Part shown: in pieces, positions 37,227-43,183 of the stretch | Layout: every line of letters begins with the position of its first letter | Position numbering within the stretch: the first letter of the stretch is position 1 | Sequence record: NC_101837.1 | Length of the DNA: 64,000 bases | Source of the DNA: a phage | Direction: 5' to 3' (one strand) | The notes under the pieces: generated by a model | What the model was told of the DNA's origin: nothing | What the model saw: only the letters and a program-made list of their open reading frames with translations | Database searches by the model: none | Program-made: the position numbers and the translations under genes

Positions 37227-37532
37227 ATGGCTAAATCTAAAGTTGAACTGTTCACCTCTCTTCCTTCTGACACTGCAGAGCGTGATCGCCTTCGCAAAAC
37301 AATCGAAGAACTGGTAGAACTCCAACTTCAGATTAAAGATCTGAAAGATGCCATTAAGGATATCATTCTCGTTGAGAAGCAGGATCACCTGTATTCTCCT
37401 AAATTCATCAAATCTCTGGTGGCTACCGAGTTCGATATTCGCTATGAGGCTGAAAAACGTCGCGCTAAAATCGAAGAAGAGGTTGAGCACATGTCTGAGG
37501 CAGACATTCTGTTCAAACGCTCTGTAGAATAA
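37227..37532 (+). CDS. hypothetical charged protein (101 aa)
   Basis: AAGGAG RBS. Confidence 0.45.
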   Translation: MAKSKVELFTSLPSDTAERDRLRKTIEELVELQLQIKDLKDAIKDIILVEKQDHLYSPKFIKSLVATEFDIRYEAEKRRAKIEEEVEHMSEADILFKRSVE

Positions 37533-37537
37533 TGACA

Positions 37538-37564
37538 AAGAGGGGGGCTTGGGCCCCTCTTTTT
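37538..37564 (+). terminator. intrinsic terminator
   Basis: GC-rich hairpin AGAGGGG...CCCCTCT then TTTTT. Confidence 0.65.
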
Positions 37565-37587
37565 ACTATCTATGAAGGAGATTTGAG

Positions 37588-37914
37588 ATGGGTATGCCGA
37601 TTACTGTAAAAGAGCTAAATGAACGTGATGCAGGTGGTCTATGGCCTGCACGAAAAATCCGCTGCGTCTATATGAAAGAGAATCTTGAACATCTTGATCA
37701 ACAGGTAAAGGTCGGCGATATTTTCGAGGTCTTCTATTCCAATCGGCGCAACTGGGAAACCATTCAGCCTTCTGGTTTTGTTCTTGCCAAACTTGACACT
37801 GGAGAAGTGATTATCCCTGGGTTGGATATTGTCTTCGAAATTATCCAAGAGTGGGATCCGGATAAGATTAGATACGAAGAATTATTCGGTAAAGGTATTA
37901 TCAAACCTGTGTGA
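37588..37914 (+). CDS. hypothetical protein (108 aa)
   Basis: AAGGAG RBS. Confidence 0.45.
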   Translation: MGMPITVKELNERDAGGLWPARKIRCVYMKENLEHLDQQVKVGDIFEVFYSNRRNWETIQPSGFVLAKLDTGEVIIPGLDIVFEIIQEWDPDKIRYEELFGKGIIKPV

Positions 37915-38222
37915 GGTGGATTATGTCTACAAAGGCGGCTAAATACTCCTATATGCCATCAACCTCTGCAGAGGTAGACTTTAGTTTCGATGTGTTTCCA
38001 CTGTTTGAGGTGATTCTGGCATACCCAACAATACTATCTACTCCTGAATCACTTGTACCTGTTAAGTTGCAGAACGCTATGCATTCTATGCACTACAACA
38101 ATAAATGTAGGCACAGATGGTGTCAGGACGAGGAAAAAGATTTGGATAGTTTGAGGGATTTTGACAGTCACCTTTTGACACCTTTCAGCTACTCCAACCT
38201 TGATAAGCCCTCATGGGTATAG
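37911..38222 (+). CDS. hypothetical protein (103 aa)
   Basis: ATGA coupling. Confidence 0.4.
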   Translation: MRWIMSTKAAKYSYMPSTSAEVDFSFDVFPLFEVILAYPTILSTPESLVPVKLQNAMHSMHYNNKCRHRWCQDEEKDLDSLRDFDSHLLTPFSYSNLDKPSWV

Positions 38223-38246
38223 CAAAATATCAAATTTAAGACACCT

Positions 38247-38276
38247 AGGACGCTCTGTGGCGTCCTTTTCTTTATC
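38247..38276 (+). terminator. intrinsic terminator
   Basis: AGGACGC-TCTGTG-GCGTCCT then TTTTCTTT. Confidence 0.65.
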
Positions 38277-38435
38277 TGGTGCACGATTGCATACCTTGGA
38301 CAGATAATCTCGTTACAGAGCGTTTAAGAGCTTTCTACAAACAAGTCTCTCTTTCGAGCGTAGCGAGAACGCACGTCCGTTTTGACCCAAATCACCATAC
38401 GCTCGGATTTTAACCAAACCCTCGCGGCGTTTCTG

Positions 38436-38464
38436 TTGACACATTACCGCTCTCGTGATAGTAT
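38436..38464 (+). promoter_or_regulatory. sigma70-like promoter
   Basis: TTGACA, 17 bp, TAGTAT. Confidence 0.55.
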
Positions 38465-38484
38465 CCACACATCGTTTGGAGAAT

Positions 38485-38586
38485 ATGGGATACACAATGA
38501 GAACATTGTCTGAAGTTTTAGTGGTGATCCTGATGATTATTACGTCCATAGCGGCTGTTGCCGGAATACTCACAGGTGGAACATGA
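38485..38586 (+). CDS. small hydrophobic peptide (33 aa)
   Basis: MGYTMRTLSEVLVVILMIITSIAAVAGILTGGT; stop overlaps next ATG (ATGA). Confidence 0.4.
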   Translation: MGYTMRTLSEVLVVILMIITSIAAVAGILTGGT

Positions 38587-38795
38587 TCAACACACATGCA
38601 TCTGAAGAGACATCCAAAGGAGTGACCATATGTCCATTGGCTGAGCCAGTGAAAGGGGAAAACTTCGATTCTGAAGATTCTCCATCTTCGCTCCAGGTAG
38701 ATCCTGAGGCTGATGACTTGACGTGGGGAGACATCGTAGATATCTGGTTCTCTATTATGCCTGAGCACGAAGAGTTCAGAGGTGGTAGACTATGA
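38583..38795 (+). CDS. hypothetical acidic protein (70 aa)
   Basis: Coupled to upstream peptide. Confidence 0.4.
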   Translation: MINTHASEETSKGVTICPLAEPVKGENFDSEDSPSSLQVDPEADDLTWGDIVDIWFSIMPEHEEFRGGRL

Positions 38796-38917
38796 AGCAC
38801 CGAGCCCACACAGGTTCCTCATGCTAAAGCATGGCCTGAAGAGGCAAACGTGCATAATTCCAGCGTATTGGAACGCATAAAACCCTGTTCACACTCTCAT
38901 TTTCCAGAGGAGATTTC

Positions 38918-39133
38918 ATGAAGATAGAAATATTTGGTGGGGCTGACAACACTCGTGGCCTGATTTACCTTGAATTCGATGAATCATACCTGCCAGAGGT
39001 GTTAAATATAGACTCTGTTGCTGAGGCTTTGGGAGTAAACCCTAAAGAACTCCACTCTTGTGCTGAGATCGATGGTTGGGAAGAGACCATGAACATTGAT
39101 TTCAGTGAAGTAGAGGATGAACCGCTGGACTGA
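38918..39133 (+). CDS. hypothetical acidic protein (71 aa)
   Basis: AGAGGAG RBS. Confidence 0.4.
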   Translation: MKIEIFGGADNTRGLIYLEFDESYLPEVLNIDSVAEALGVNPKELHSCAEIDGWEETMNIDFSEVEDEPLD

Positions 39134-39260
39134 CACACAATTAGCTGCCCGGCTAAAGTGCTGGAAGCACCTATAACACATCTTTCAACTAAATTTCCTA
39201 CCACCACAATCACTTACCTCCCACACATGACTGTTTGCTTGTTTAGTGAGCAGTCATGCC

Positions 39261-39288
39261 TTGACATTCTTGCCTATCTTGATAAAAT
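39261..39288 (+). promoter_or_regulatory. sigma70-like promoter with no ORF downstream
   Basis: TTGACA, 16 bp, TAAAAT; downstream 250 nt is purine-rich and non-coding. Confidence 0.45.
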
Positions 39289-40663
39289 TAAGTTCTTCTC
39301 TTTTCTTTTACCGAGTAATTCGGGTTTTCTGTTCTCTTCGGTTTGAAGGGGTATGGAGATACACCTGAGTGAACAGGGTGAACAACCGAACCTTTGGCTA
39401 TGGCATTAGCATGGCGAAGCGGACGGGTGACGAAAGAGGGGCCGGAGGACACCAGTCACTGCCATATGATATATGGGTGATAACCTGAAGAGTCTGAATA
39501 AGTGTTTAAGTACCAGTCAGAGGAAAAGGTGAATGGTAGCCGAAGGGGGATGGGGGGTTTCTTGTATCTTTAATTTGTATATTATGTATACACTTGTAAA
39601 CCAATCTCATCTGAATCTGTTTACCACACAAAGCGGATAGAGACAAATATCACCTATTAAACTTGAATTATTTATAGAAAATACCACAACACCAATTAAG
39701 TCTTTGATTTTAAACACAAATCCTACAGATATTCAACCTCCATATTTAACATACTCGTAACATATTCCATACTCTACCTGTCTGATCAATTTACCCAACT
39801 ACATCCCCATATTTTCCCTGTCTGTACTACCCCATCCCCGCCGGGAGTCCCGTCATATCTGGCTTTCCAGCAAATATCACACCCACAAATATCATTGCCT
39901 GAAGAGGGTTTCATCCCATAATACATGCCTTACATGAAGAGCGCTTCATACACCACGTAAATTTTTTAATTGACCTCCCCGCCGCCGGAGAGGTTGGCTT
40001 TTCCCCACACAGACCTGAAGAGTCAGCCAGAAATATCTGAACAGGTCCAGTTCTGCCTTGTCATGAGCCGTAGCGACTGGAGTGCTGCCAGGCGGACGGA
40101 ATGGGAATACTTCTCATTCTTATAATAATTCTCAAATATCGAGGCAGTGAGGCAAATTAATAGGTGAGGCCGTTCACACAGTGGCACAACATTTGCAATC
40201 TATTTTGTGGGGGTGAATGAGAATACCTATCATTGTGAGAACTGTTATCATTACGGGCAATTTAACATAATACCCATTATGCGCACCACTGGCGATCCAT
40301 ACAGGGATTGATAACATGAGTTACAGTTTACGCATATAACAATCATATTTCTTACTATTTGTGTGGGATATAGTTAGCAGCCGATAGATTAGATATTGAC
40401 CTGTGGACTTCCAACCGTCTAGACGTCTAAACGCCCACACAACAAGGATTATACATACATTACTGAATGTAAACAGGGCCGCAAAAATGCTACCATACCA
40501 GTTTGTAAATTTTTCATGCAGCACTTGACAAAGAGAGGAAAAACTTGTCTGACATGCTGGGCATACTTCACACCTTAAACATACTCAACACTGGATACAA
40601 TAACAATTGTTACTATTGCATGCCTCACTGTTCACGTATAGACTATTTGCTCAAAAATGATAA

Positions 40664-40955
40664 GCCATGCCATTCGTTTGCATGATAACAATAACGATCA
40701 ACAACAATAAAGACTGAAATGATAACGTTGTTGATTTGACTGACTAACAATTAACAGGCTAATAATCTATGACATAATATAAAAGCAGGGCAACTATTAG
40801 CAGATCTATAGTTGCCTTGCTTGTTATGTCATGATTAACTAAATACAAGGCAACTATGATCTGATTAATAGTTTGCAGACAAACTATCACGGGGGTGATG
40901 GTTACTGCTTTTATATTATGTCGCGACTCCGTCGCGCCATGCCATTCGTTTGCAT
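40664..40955. repeat. composite repeat: 20-bp direct repeats flanking 18-bp inverted repeats and iteron-like motifs
   Basis: GCCATGCCATTCGTTTGCAT at about 40664 and 40936; GACATAATATAAAAGCAG (40771) and its reverse complement (40905); AAGGCAACTAT-like motif in both orientations between them. Confidence 0.5.
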
Positions 40956-41616
40956 AGTTGCCTTATTGTTACAGATAAAATAATTGTATTGTTAATTATT
41001 TCTTATCTTTCTATTAGTCATCTAATGATTCCAGTTAGTATAGTAACGTACAGTAAACATTAGACGACTAAAGATTTCTCTGATTATGATAACTTGCCGT
41101 GACAATTTCAGACTGTTTACGAAAAATGTTGACACCTGAGCTGATTTATGTTATGCAATTTAAACGAATAATTATTTTATGCAGGTATTGACTATTCTGT
41201 TATCCTATGGTCGGAATAAATACTTAGCAGGCTATAGAATGGTGAGCGTACGTAAATTCTGAGATCTGTCGGCTATAGTTATACTCGATTTTTCACGTAG
41301 AACACGCTTTTTGGTTTGTGTAAGTGTATGACTTATAAAGATTTTTAGTTGTTGACAAGATATTGAAGATGTGCATCAGGTTAAATTTTGTGCAATAGCT
41401 GCATTACGTGCAATTTTGGAAGGAAAACGGGTAAAAATAGCACCGCTACCACACAATGAAAGGTTATGCAATAGTTATTTTACATGTATATTTGTACAGT
41501 GTGTGGGATTGATGGCTCGTCAATTATTCCACTTGCCAGGTAGGGCCGTTTATGGTAGGGAGGAAGAGCAGACAAAAAGAAAGGGACCTAAGCCCCTTGA
41601 TAATTCAGTTAAAAAA

Positions 41617-42036
41617 TTATAATGATTCGTATATTTCAAAAATCCGATTTGCCAGGTCGTTACGGTACCGGAATTTTTCATCACGTTTGATCATAAGATC
41701 TTTATAGCCGTACTCTTTAAGCACTTCATTAACTTTATGGCGGCACACCTTCATATTATCCTGAGCGTCACCAATAAACCTGTTGCTATGGTGCATGGCT
41801 TTAATTTCTTCTTCCAGGACCAGGGCAACTATGCGGACCGGATCAAGCTGATAGGCGGTAACATCCATGCGGCATTGTAAACGGCTTTTTACGTCTGCCA
41901 CCGGATATACTGCAACCTCTTCCCCGTCAACATTGACAATAATTAGTTTACCATCGATTTCGAATCCTTTCGCCGCCGGACCGTGACAAAAAGCGTTATC
42001 AAAGCTATATGCCGGATTATTAGATTTAATGTTCAT
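41617..42036 (-). CDS. hypothetical protein (139 aa)
   Basis: Last gene of leftward block. Confidence 0.45.
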   Translation of the reverse strand: MNIKSNNPAYSFDNAFCHGPAAKGFEIDGKLIIVNVDGEEVAVYPVADVKSRLQCRMDVTAYQLDPVRIVALVLEEEIKAMHHSNRFIGDAQDNMKVCRHKVNEVLKEYGYKDLMIKRDEKFRYRNDLANRIFEIYESL

Positions 42037-42179
42037 GGTGTTTTTACCTCTTAGTTAATTTTCTTACAACTTCCCTTCAAAAAAGAATATAGCAAAACTG
42101 CCGATCCCTGTCAACCAGGGATAGCATAATTTTTATGTGATCAAGGGGCTTTAAGCCCCTGACCGTGCACCTTGTTGTA

Positions 42180-42443
42180 TTATTTGTTGCTCATCCAGTT
42201 TTCCCAAGCTGCCTGATAATCTGCCTCACTACGGCGGATCTCTTCTTGCTCTTCAAGTCGGATCTCTTCTTCCAGGTACCCCAAGATGTCAGCCTTTTTG
42301 GTCTGGCGTAGCATCCAGTCATCTTTTTTGCGAGTGAAGATCTTATAAGCTTTCTCGCAAACCTCTTTTTTGCTACCTTTCTGGACTTCAAGAACACGAT
42401 AAGCCATATATTGAACTAATTTGAGCTGATCAAGGCGTTTCAT
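42180..42443 (-). CDS. hypothetical charged protein
   Basis: Tiled ORF. Confidence 0.45.
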   Translation of the reverse strand: MKRLDQLKLVQYMAYRVLEVQKGSKKEVCEKAYKIFTRKKDDWMLRQTKKADILGYLEEEIRLEEQEEIRRSEADYQAAWENWMSNK

Positions 42444-42505
42444 GATGTTTTTCCTCTTTATGTGGTTTTTGTTTAGTGGGCCTTTTGGCCCGTGTCATTA
42501 TCTTA

Positions 42506-42778
42506 TTACTTACGGCGGCAGAATTCAAGCGTTTTTAATTGATAATCTTCCTCAGCCTGGAGTACAACCGCCTCGATCATTTCGTTGGCATTGTTGAAGC
42601 CATATCCTTTAGCGAATTCATCCGCACCACCTTCGTGATCATGTTCTGCGTTCATCGCTTCCACGAAATGGAATTCAAGATTATTGAGATAAGGGCTTGA
42701 TGTTCCGTCCTCTTTTTCGATGAGATCCCAAATAGCATTGAAACGTGATTCAACTTCTTGGTTAATCCAGCTTAACAT
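42506..42778 (-). CDS. hypothetical acidic protein
   Basis: Internal ATG with GGAAGAGAGG RBS in track ORF 42506..42862. Confidence 0.45.
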   Translation of the reverse strand: MLSWINQEVESRFNAIWDLIEKEDGTSSPYLNNLEFHFVEAMNAEHDHEGGADEFAKGYGFNNANEMIEAVVLQAEEDYQLKTLEFCRRK

Positions 42779-42991
42779 GGCGTTTTCCTCTCTTCCGGTT
42801 GTTGTGTGGGCGCTTTTGCCCCCTTCGAGATAAATGCTACCCCACCACCTGGCAGATGTCAACGGTTTTTATAGTTTTTATATAGCAGGCACACCCGGTG
42901 ATTGTCTCCCCCCCGTCGCCAGGTGCCTGCCGTGAAACAAGTATAACAAAAAACAGGACCATTGCAAGCCCTGTTTTGTAGTTTATAAGGA

Positions 42992-43183
42992 TTATATTTT
43001 TTCGCCTATGTAGTCCGGTCGGTTTTTCTCTGTCATGCGCTTTAGCAATTCTTGCATGTTACTTATGGCTTGTAGTGTATCCCCTTCCAGGCTTGAATCG
43101 ACATAATCAGGATCGTCTATGACCTTTCTATGATTATGATAACGCAGTACCGCCAATACCTTTCTAACTTGTTCGATATTCAT
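42992..43183 (-). CDS. hypothetical protein (63 aa)
   Basis: Tiled ORF. Confidence 0.4.
   Translation of the reverse strand: MNIEQVRKVLAVLRYHNHRKVIDDPDYVDSSLEGDTLQAISNMQELLKRMTEKNRPDYIGEKI

Follow-up and report, generated by a model that had tools for sequence, protein, structure and literature searches.

The packaging RNA (pRNA) of phi29 is an essential structured RNA located a few hundred base pairs from the left end of the linear genome. Its relatives show poor sequence conservation but keep the structure, a three-way junction closed by pairing of the 5' and 3' ends. Among terminase-binding sites, the cosB elements of lambda are duplex protein sites of fixed geometry that are needed for packaging. 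T7 has the CJ pause/termination site, whose elements work with T7 RNA polymerase. RNA-primed origins include ColE1 RNA II and T4 oriF and oriG, and individual T4 origins are dispensable. The injection-stop-signal region of T5, linked to DNA entry in two steps, is contained in a terminal repeat of 10 kb. The concatemer junction of T7 has a hairpin-ended processing intermediate, according to work cited in a passage of PMC4281155; a bioRxiv abstract also refers to the junction.

The window analysed here (the whole stretch of 64,000 nucleotides, NC_101837.1) comes from an rV5-like coliphage (Vequintavirus). Its assembly holds a single copy of a 459-bp direct terminal repeat (40091-40549), which marks the physical genome ends, the left end being 40091 and the right end 40549. 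The annotated 459-bp repeat of phage Gotham, identical at both ends of its record, maps to 40091-40549, and five records start exactly at 40091. A terminal repeat of 458-459 bp has been reported (PMC7471380, PMC6563267, PMC6658697). The element described here (40664-40965) is 115-416 bp from the right boundary at 40549, that is, near the end-forming cut, where a terminase site would be expected, and its folded unit begins about 220 nt (221) inside the terminal repeat. Just inside the boundary is a hypervariable zone (40550-40663; identity to 20 relatives 0.44-0.77, with many indels) that contains degenerate short repeats with the core GTTCAC/GTTTAC; relatives have tandem arrays of period 15-16 here, differing in copy number.

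The AT-rich, gene-free setting described in the original prediction was confirmed. GC content is 0.31-0.37 at the element versus about 0.42-0.47 in flanking genes, remaining at ~0.31-0.34 over 40900-41299, and the element is followed by a conserved non-coding AT-rich tail (40966-41080; identity 0.89-0.98 across relatives). No overlapping ORF exceeds 46 aa, and a tRNA/tmRNA scan of the window found none. As for a small protein, the ORFs overlapping the unit are all of 36-43 aa and start with GTG or TTG, and the unit's near-total nucleotide invariance, which leaves no synonymous variation, speaks against coding. Neighbouring proteins matched only PHROG families of unknown function and nothing in Pfam above cut-off, and none of them was initiator-like in these comparisons. 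GC skew was discarded as an origin marker because it is confounded by transcription direction and local composition tracts.

The repeats that had been predicted are all present. A 20-bp direct repeat (GCCATGCCATTCGTTTGCAT) occurs at 40664-40683 and 40936-40955 (+ strand, 100% identical) and has only these two matches in 64 kb, even at 3 mismatches (0.01 expected by chance). It brackets a perfect 18-bp inverted repeat, with arms GACATAATATAAAAGCAG (40771-40788) and CTGCTTTTATATTATGTC (40905-40922) that are complementary at 18/18 positions and 116 nt apart, close to the 115 bp originally given. The bracket is asymmetric, with 87 nt between direct repeat and arm on the left but 13 nt on the right, and there is no duplication in the bases adjoining the arms (TCTAT and GCGAC). 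Iteron-like motifs in both orientations had also been claimed. Four of the six window matches to CAAGGCAACTAT (1 mismatch) fall here, near the places indicated and far above the 0.34 expected per whole 64-kb window: 40786-40797 (+), 40808-40819 (-), 40846-40857 (+) and 40954-40965 (-). Their orientation thus alternates and their start-to-start spacing is irregular (22, 38 and 108 nt). Direct-repeat copy 2 overlaps at its end with the fourth motif copy (minus strand, TAAGGCAACTAT). What the original description lacked was a 152-nt nested fold and two further hairpins (40882-40903 and 40923-40935).

In the structure model, this multi-helix fold (40771-40922; z = -10.6 as DNA) is closed by helix P1, which the 18-bp inverted repeat forms. 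P1 has a 5' arm that is invariant in 23 sequences and a 3' arm rich in U when read on the + strand (CUGCUUUUAUAUUAUGUC). Enclosed by P1 are a long inner hairpin, P2 (40789-40877, in which ~40790-40819 pairs with 40846-40876), and a 9-bp stem-loop, P3 (AACTATCAC GGGG GTGATGGTT, 40882-40903), which includes a T.G wobble pair. Between P1 and direct-repeat copy 2 is a small hairpin, P4 (GCGAC TCC GTCGC, 40923-40935), the 13-nt spacing being constant in all relatives. P2 contains motif copies 1 (+), 2 (-) and 3 (+). According to the model, the AAGGCAACTAT motifs are the two strands of the P2 inner helix and of a competing alternative fold, in which motif 1 pairs with motif 2 and motif 4 with motif 3, and which is nearly isoenergetic, the pairing of motif 1 with motif 2 being only 4.4 kcal/mol less stable than the nested fold.

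This is the only strongly structured spot in 5.5 kb (the sole one with z < -4 in 37.5-43 kb). As RNA, the full unit has a z of about -12.8 on the + strand versus -11.8 to -11.7 on the minus strand, while + strand RNA of 40785-40920 has z = -7.7. Strand asymmetry in the window unit is small (2 G.U pairs on each strand; -71 vs -64 kcal/mol). Across the window unit and the units of other phage groups described below, the + strand folds better in 9/9 and has more G.U pairs in 7/9, the numbers being equal in the window and lower on the + strand in A73. Energies of the fold mirrored onto the opposite strand were discarded because their evaluation tolerated non-standard pairs. None of the Rfam 15 covariance models (phage pRNA included) matched window positions 37500-43000 at E up to 1, and the loci of the other groups gave a chance miRNA match alone (E 0.55).

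The original prediction had proposed comparison with related genomes as a check, and the unit is almost invariant across ~117 related phage records, always at the same locus, whereas adjoining DNA is hypervariable. In 23 sequences, 140 of the unit's 152 positions are invariant. The 200 bp to its left are hypervariable among relatives, many of which align (97-99%) only from query position 220, equivalent to window 40769. The spacer between direct-repeat copy 1 and the folded unit (40684-40768; identity 0.19-0.6) exists in several unrelated versions of 47-158 nt, and the distance between terminal-repeat boundary and unit spans 97-307 nt across the genus. Amid this hypervariable DNA, direct-repeat copy 1 forms a conserved island (0.90) that 18 of 20 aligned relatives possess and V18 lacks; copy 2 has a bin identity of 0.997. 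Within the unit, variable sites and a 33-bp insertion in rV5 and phita32 are concentrated at the P2 apex (40820-40845), which tolerates both, and at 40800-40803. The commonest variant, C40801A, breaks a pair of the nested fold, and T40872A sits in a bulge. Covariation within Vequintavirus is uninformative as the sequences are too alike: 98.3% of cells are paired, yet 146 of 500 shuffles do equally well.

The exception to this conservation is FV3, a propagated phage that is missing the inverted-repeat unit. It lacks 40684-40935, exactly the unit between the direct repeats, and with it three of the four motifs, leaving a single direct-repeat copy (copy 2, with one mismatch) plus motif 4. FV3 has the only empty state among 119 records, and this state fits a one-off deletion via recombination between the direct repeats.

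A DNA search with the window's element gave matches in Vequintavirus only. With blastn it gave no alignment to the non-coding zones of A73 and the phAPEC8-like phages, from which the window's motifs are all absent. Because there is no DNA-level match, homology to other groups was found through architecture and a structure model. Phages of the phAPEC8-like and phi92-like groups, together with A73, carry a repeat-hairpin-repeat element whose sequence is unlike that of the window. In the first two groups it lies 214-283 bp inside the terminal repeat. In Ro121c4 the terminal repeat ends at 2055, direct repeats are at 2201 and 2461, and the unit occupies 2269-2414 (213 nt inside); in BME3 the unit is at 625-771, after a 342-bp terminal repeat (282 nt inside). 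The boundary contexts of these two terminal repeats are homologous (...GCT|CAACA). The order of terminal repeat, short-repeat array, direct repeat, hairpin unit and direct repeat is kept in two subfamilies. A73 has the repeat-hairpin-repeat part of this layout, with sequence landmarks similar to the others.

The out-group units share with the window bracketing direct repeats and a small GC hairpin, their own hairpin at the place of P4 being co-varying. They are flanked by a repeated box, TGCTAATGAT, whose window counterpart is the 20-bp repeat, and they carry invariant palindromic boxes (CTTGCAAT.ATTGCAAG). Window P3 matches the P3 apex of these units (AAC..TCAC-loop-GATGGTTA). Pairing in the out-groups shows covariation. 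Compensatory pairs number 10 of 53 with 7 sequences, where 0 of 500 shuffles reach the observed values on four measures, and 13 of 53 with 8 sequences, where G.U is invariant (8/8) at two positions. These invariant G.U pairs are specific to one strand. Template-switch mutation in quasi-palindromes may mimic compensatory change.

A covariance model (R1) was built from the phAPEC8/phi92-like units alone, with no Vequintavirus sequence. Its top match is window 40773-40920, on both strands (24.8 bits, E 6e-4; 21 bits, E 5e-3; the E values are rough), and the next match has E 0.59 or worse. R1 also recovers the unit in V18 and rV5, while its search of FV3 gave no match. R1 slightly favours the minus strand, so the orientation is taken from the sequence landmarks. 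Exact-motif scans of IMG/VR and metagenome contigs found just 2, 1 and 2 loci; a 15-mer scan found ~100 loci, of which one was genuine, and a scan for the arm-pair pattern found one new true member (L142). Six other new arm-pair loci were rejected as chance matches with weak folds. The element apparently belongs to an undescribed family with members in phAPEC8-like and phi92-like phages, and A73-like phages probably carry one too. Some 250 records match, 119 of them from Vequintavirus and 133 matching the phAPEC8/phi92-type unit. Where genome ends are known, family members were shown to occupy the matching site. Near-invariance beside hypervariable DNA and recurrence of the architecture by terminal repeats elsewhere support a real, selected, non-coding and functional locus.

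Our preferred reading, plausible if somewhat short of an even chance, is that this new family acts as a folded single strand, most likely a small structured RNA. The compensatory substitutions and one-strand G.U pairs in the out-groups indicate pairing within one strand, not a series of duplex binding sites. There would be one conserved non-coding element at ~40769-40965, with its AT-rich tail to ~41080, just inside the left physical end, and it would work folded, as a single + strand that runs inward from the genome end. The product would most likely be a structured RNA of roughly 130-200 nt; we infer its RNA nature, start, end and role. The RNA may start from TGaCATAAT (40769-40778, +), a candidate extended -10 that overlaps the P1 5' arm. 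A promoter scan detected TTAACA-16-CATAAT with TG, and the conserved block has its exact left edge at the TG of this putative promoter. No conserved -35 was seen and, by inspection, promoter-like sequences upstream of out-group units are weak. A start ~7 nt past the -10 (near 40785) would keep only 4 nt of the 18-nt P1 5' arm in the RNA; P1 is nonetheless perfect, and it co-varies in the out-groups. On the + strand a U-run lies 5 nt from the P3 stem, so that termination there would be non-canonical.

Given FV3, the element would be accessory rather than essential. It may supply a primer or R-loop RNA to a dispensable origin beside the AT-rich tail; it may instead act early as a regulatory or anti-defence RNA, or serve in packaging. 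The bracketing 20-bp direct repeats possibly bind protein. The locus may be an origin of the RNA-primed type. Like ColE1 RNA II and the T4 origins, it would have a structured transcript close to its promoter, capable of alternative folds, and after this an AT-rich stretch that melts readily, but no homology to RNA II, oriF or oriG was found. It resembles phi29 pRNA in being a structured unit of ~120-170 nt at the left end, with paired ends and structure better conserved than sequence (the RNA again being predicted). Whereas pRNA belongs to protein-primed podoviruses, this element occurs in large myoviruses that have terminal repeats and a terminase; it also has no Rfam match, FV3 shows that the unit is dispensable whereas pRNA is essential, and no pRNA-style complementarity was seen by eye between the two hairpin loops. 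By analogy with pRNA, the structured nucleic acid could act directly in the genome-end biology of large terminal-repeat myoviruses, as an RNA component or guide of packaging or end-cutting, or as an origin primer RNA. The alternative folds would then be a switch and the bracketing direct repeats protein-loading sites. We regard this more specific proposal as rather unlikely.

The direct repeats, palindromic boxes and link to genome ends are unexplained by an RNA gene and fit a DNA-level site. A cis-acting DNA element for genome-end biology is a real possibility, if a less probable one than a folded single strand. It might be a terminase recognition (pac-like) site or a site for concatemer cutting and terminal-repeat duplication, at which direct repeats and palindromic boxes bind protein and the inverted repeat extrudes as a hairpin or cruciform. 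The order of parts kept in two subfamilies and the homologous boundary contexts of Ro121c4 and BME3 argue for such a site, as do the repeated boxes around each unit and the conservation of direct-repeat copy 1 amid hypervariable DNA. In addition, the sequence TGACAT at the window's terminal-repeat boundary reappears at the start of the P1 arm, and a hairpin-ended T7 DNA species with a terminal repeat has been reported (as cited in the same passage of PMC4281155). Both the T7 junction and this locus have fixed ends, short direct terminal repeats, and a hairpin-forming or transcription-stopping sequence beside the repeat that is tied to end formation. They share no sequence or structural homology, however; these phages lack T7 RNA polymerase, and the element is a conserved fold of several helices, 97-307 nt from the cut site. 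That range leaves no fixed geometry to the cut. Lambda cosB likewise has repeated boxes in both orientations, a few hundred base pairs from the end-forming cut and at the left end, but here the pairing co-varies, G.U is confined to one strand, spacing varies and FV3 lacks most of the element. The one-strand G.U pairs (8/8) and the two differing internal hairpins are not expected of a duplex site or simple cruciform. A terminase site should be required for packaging, which, given that FV3 was propagated without the inverted-repeat unit and one direct-repeat copy, this element is not; a minimal site could persist in that phage. The T5 region is also similar, a non-coding stretch rich in repeats and palindromes that accompanies the terminal repeat of a large virulent coliphage, but the present element lies outside the 459-bp terminal repeat of its phage.

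The original prediction offered an origin or protein-binding locus. A selected non-coding locus was upheld, whereas an iteron-type origin, in which an initiator would bind the AAGGCAACTAT copies and melt adjacent AT-rich DNA, is very doubtful. The clustering of four motif copies within 180 bp and the adjoining AT-rich tail suit such an origin, as does a skew change that the rV5 paper found in this region, although that paper ascribes it to a switch of transcription direction and local skew is dominated by composition tracts. Iterons would share one orientation and a helically phased spacing, but these copies alternate, are irregularly spaced and form helices, while out-group homologs preserve pairing and not motif sequence. 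FV3 lacks three of the four copies, and in the PHROG and Pfam comparisons no neighbouring protein resembled an initiator. It is only slightly less improbable that the locus is a two-way transcription terminator or insulator, shielding the terminal repeat from two converging transcription units. On the minus strand a 15-bp hairpin (40822->40783) is directly followed by TTTTATATTAT, and the annotators of phage Alma put a terminator at the position mapping to this hairpin; on the + strand, hairpin 40882-40903 is followed by the T-rich arm, and the A-rich and T-rich arms are like those that flank two-way terminators. Clean terminators already close both gene blocks, however (38247-66, +; 41598-81, -), and a multi-helix junction of ~150 nt with conserved G.U, a co-varying small hairpin and direct repeats far exceeds what termination needs. 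Least probable of all, and barely worth entertaining, is a mobile element of the small, non-autonomous sort (MITE-like or att-flanked), whose terminal inverted repeats would be the 18-bp arms and whose target or att duplication would be the 20-bp repeat. The inverted arms that such an element needs do exist, and FV3 provides a clean presence/absence polymorphism, its single direct repeat being joined to the outer flanks. The direct repeats are, however, 87 and 13 nt from the arms, with no adjacent target-site duplication, and the element is not dispersed in multiple copies but single in 64 kb. Its locus is fixed across ~117 records and the other subfamilies, FV3 being the sole empty state.

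Phages of the rV5-, phAPEC8- and phi92-like groups are common in sewage and gut samples and are much used in therapeutic cocktails. We know of no explanation of how their genome ends are recognized, cut, replicated or first expressed. The long-noted "non-coding" box of rV5 is now tied to a defined, covariation-backed element beside the terminal repeat, common to two subfamilies. It offers a compact experimental target of ~150-300 bp, for which FV3 is a natural deletion mutant available for comparison. Should the RNA reading prove true, this would be a new family of structured phage RNA; should the element be cis-acting, this large group would gain its first candidate signal for end processing. 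Phage engineering would benefit in both cases, for example in payload placement and genome rebooting.

By sequence, the window phage is an rV5-like coliphage (Vequintavirus), and 119 phage records match the region at 87-98% identity. Two converging gene blocks flank the locus, their terminators being at 38247-66 (+) and 41598-81 (-). The rV5 paper drew the zone as a "non-coding" box and ascribed the skew change within it to a switch in transcription direction (PMC3606486). Position 40091 is the exact start of five records, including Gotham. The latter is annotated with a 459-bp terminal repeat, the same at either end of the record, that maps to 40091-40549. Non-permuted terminal redundancy of 458-459 bp has been reported at this site (PMC7471380, PMC6563267, PMC6658697). 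The flagged structure thus begins 115 bp inside the left genome end.

The repeats described in the original prediction are all present. The 20-bp direct repeat GCCATGCCATTCGTTTGCAT occurs at 40664-40683 (copy 1) and 40936-40955 (copy 2), with no further match at ≤ 3 mismatches in the 64 kb (chance expectation 0.01). It brackets a perfect 18-bp inverted repeat (arms 40771-40788 and 40905-40922, 116 nt apart). Four "iteron-like" CAAGGCAACTAT motifs (1 mismatch allowed) lie in both orientations at 40786 (+), 40808 (-), 40846 (+) and 40954 (-); these are four of the window's six matches, where 0.34 would be expected. The setting is indeed AT-rich (GC 0.31-0.37, against ~0.42-0.47 in flanking genes) and gene-free, no ORF > 46 aa overlapping the structure.

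Together with the sequence between them, the inverted-repeat arms make up a 152-nt unit that is predicted to form one nested structure. The arms pair as the 18-bp outer helix P1 (40771-40788/40905-40922), enclosing a long inner helix, P2 (40790-40819 with 40846-40876), and a 9-bp hairpin, P3 (40882-40903). A small predicted hairpin, P4 (GCGAC-TCC-GTCGC, 40923-35), follows, and direct-repeat copy 2 comes next. Fold z-scores were -10.6 for DNA, -7.7 for + strand RNA (40785-40920) and -11.7 for - strand RNA, and the unit was the sole segment with z < -4 within 37.5-43 kb. On this folding model the "iteron-like" motifs are helix strands: motif 2 pairs with motif 3 in the nested fold (-81.8 kcal/mol), and an alternative pairs motif 1 with 2 and motif 3 with 4 (-77.4 kcal/mol). 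The two folds exclude each other and are nearly isoenergetic, and they explain both the number of copies (four) and their alternating orientation.

Conservation in relatives, proposed as a check of the locus, was borne out when 20 relatives were aligned across 40440-41120. The terminal-repeat end is conserved. Hypervariable, indel-rich DNA follows at 40556-40768; it contains direct-repeat copy 1 as a conserved island, together with short tandem arrays that have a GTTTAC core. Identity across 40769-41080 is 0.89-1.0. Among 23 sequences, 140 of the unit's 152 positions are invariant and its variable sites cluster at the P2 apex and at 40800-40803; variation is so low that covariation within the genus is uninformative. 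At the P2 apex, rV5 and phita32 carry a 33-bp insertion, TTAACATCCTCGAGACGAAGGCTATGCCTGAGT, after window position 40823. The right arm is a constant 13 nt from copy 2; on the other side, 47 to 158 nt separate the left arm from copy 1, and the unit lies 97 to 307 nt away from the terminal-repeat boundary. Short tandem arrays of variable copy number lie directly beyond the terminal repeat's right boundary (window 40550-40663; rV5 843-925; FV3 1197-1238; BME3 343-420). Those of rV5 and FV3 have a period of 15-16 and a GTTTAC core, and that of BME3 is CAACAAATAG x4, its first copy exactly at the boundary.

FV3 is the sole record among the 119 in a deleted state. Its sequence runs from the left flank of copy 1 (ATGATAA) through one repeat copy (GCCATGaCATTCGTTTGCAT) to the right flank of copy 2 (AGTTGCCTT), for which the simplest account would be deletion in its lineage through recombination between both copies. 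The inverted-repeat unit is therefore not essential for growth. Phage V18 is without copy 1 and keeps the remaining element.

Matching elements occur in other phage groups. The 139-aa protein encoded beside the zone (41617-42036, minus; phrog_12277, function unassigned) is ~90% identical in Phapecoctavirus and 86% in A73 (Septuagintavirus). Between the window and these phages the non-coding DNA gave no blastn alignment, and all the window's motifs are absent from theirs. A conserved protein adjoining unalignable non-coding DNA suggests an end-proximal gene module exchanged between subfamilies. In each group an inverted-repeat unit lies ~590 bp past the gene, with 21-nt arms in A73 (z = -6.4) and 24-nt arms in Ro121c4 (z = -8.0). 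A73 and the window share an arm landmark (GACACTATAAAACGAG and GACATAATATAAAAGCAG, respectively); downstream of the right arm A73 has gctccctacggtcgc-GCCACCTCCATACTCTGGCAAT and the window gcgactccgtcgc-GCCATGCCATTCGTTTGCAT, and the A73 form of the direct repeat is found again upstream of its unit. The Ro121c4 unit is bracketed by a ~24-nt direct repeat with copies 260 bp apart.

The position near a genome end also recurs. Mt1B1_P17 begins and ends with the same 328 bp. In Ro121c4 coordinates this terminal repeat ends at 2055, with the first direct repeat beginning at 2201 and the unit at 2269; the window counterparts of these distances are 115 and 222 bp. As in the window, hypervariable DNA directly follows the boundary in Ro121c4-type phages and the conserved composite comes next. 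By blastn, the phAPEC8-type unit has homologs in Klebsiella phages and in phi92-like phages (Justusliebigvirus), often lying < 1 kb from a record end. BME3, with its unit at 625-771, has a 342-bp terminal repeat by PhageTerm (PMC12210895), and its boundary (...GGCT/CAACAAATAG) lies in a context homologous to the one in Ro121c4 (...GTGCT/CAACATATCG).

Several other features of these regions were observed. The boundary (window 40549/40550; Ro121c4, reverse complement, 2055/2056; BME3 342/343) has a similar context across subfamilies, an AAGAGA-like run ~10-17 nt before the cut and then (C/T)(A/G)ACAT, which may be a terminase cut-site consensus; TGACAT of the window's boundary occurs again where the P1 arm starts. 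The terminal repeat itself holds, at 40145-40178 and 40402-40439, three copies of GTGAGGC (a repeat_region in the nomo and Alma annotations) and an imperfect 22-nt palindrome. The + strand of 39600-39900, a tract 200-500 bp to the left of the terminal repeat and so on the genome's right-end side, is markedly rich in C and poor in G (GC skew -0.53 to -0.57), and almost no structure is predicted for it (MFE per 150 nt, -3.5 to -13 kcal/mol). A near-consensus sigma-70-like site (39261-39323; TTGACA-16-TAAAAT with TG, 11/12 matches), followed by a small hairpin (39311-23), lies in the "non-coding" zone, has no ORF after it and could direct a non-coding transcript toward the terminal repeat. After the element, the + strand of Ro121c4 (reverse complement, ~2490-2800) is extremely G+T-rich with repeated GTTGGTTG-like runs, a feature of phAPEC8-like phages; the window's tail (40966-41400) is likewise T-rich, and G-rich past ~41100. 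Some GenBank MG0656xx records titled 'Campylobacter phage' probably carry the wrong label or derive from contaminants: about 18 are 90-94% identical to this rV5-like region of an E. coli phage, and further ones match that of phAPEC8-like phages.

The fold is under selection in the out-groups (phAPEC8-like and phi92-like phages). All their units are predicted to form the P1-P2-P3 three-way junction, and P1 is 100% complementary despite changing sequence (...AAGCCA/TGGCTT..., ...AACGCA/TGCGTT..., ...ACCGCA/TGCGGT..., ...AACACA/TGTGTT...). In seven out-group sequences compensatory change was found at 10 of 53 pairs; none of 500 shuffles reached the observed values on four measures, and slid-partner controls were far lower. 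With eight sequences the count was 13 of 53, and G.U was invariant in all eight at two pairs. P4 co-varies as well (CGCTATG/CATAGCG, CGCTACG/CGTAGCG, GCCTACG/CGTAGGC). The window-orientation strand is the better folder in 9/9 units and has more G.U pairs in seven of the nine (the window is equal, A73 has fewer); with composition controlled, strand asymmetry is modest overall and small in the window.

A covariance model trained on out-group units only found window 40773-40920 as its top match on either strand (minus 24.8 bits, E 6e-4; plus 21 bits, E 5e-3; E-values are rough), the next match having E 0.59 or worse. As the unit is close to palindromic, the strand call is ambiguous. The model also detects the V18 and rV5 units and, weakly, that of A73 (E 0.08), and gave no match in FV3. 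A shared orientation across all groups is supported by three sequence landmarks: P1 right arm, then P4, then direct repeat; the P3 pattern AAC..TCAC-loop-GATGGTTA; and a GGGGT box immediately ahead of the P1 3' arm.

Compensatory change, conserved one-strand wobbles and a pair of unlike internal hairpins favour a folded single strand over an array of duplex sites. A small structured + strand RNA is tentatively ranked first among the candidates. The first bases of the conserved block are the TG of an extended -10 (TGaCATAAT, 40769-78), a possible promoter element for such an RNA, the P1 3' arm is U-rich and dispensability would suit an accessory RNA. However, an RNA started near 40785 would include little of the P1 5' arm, the out-groups show weak promoter signals, and the direct repeats, invariant palindromic boxes and genome-end link are left unexplained. 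The conserved genome-end order and repeated boxes would be accounted for by the main rival, a cis-acting DNA element for packaging or end processing, but FV3, variable spacing and strand-specific wobble pairs weaken this reading, which is rather unlikely. A two-way terminator is improbable. The iteron-type origin first proposed is less probable again, since its motifs are helix strands and the compensatory changes and one-strand wobbles indicate a folded strand; a mobile element is the least probable of those named, and what probability remains goes to something else. An RNA-primed origin beside the conserved AT-rich tail would, speculatively, reconcile the favoured RNA with part of the origin idea.

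The terminal repeat in the non-coding zone has already been published; the structured element adjoining it appears to be new. No family in Rfam 15 matches it, and a full-text literature search, whose coverage excluded most subscription journals, found no description of it. The element is a new family within a known general kind, the structured non-coding elements near phage genome ends.
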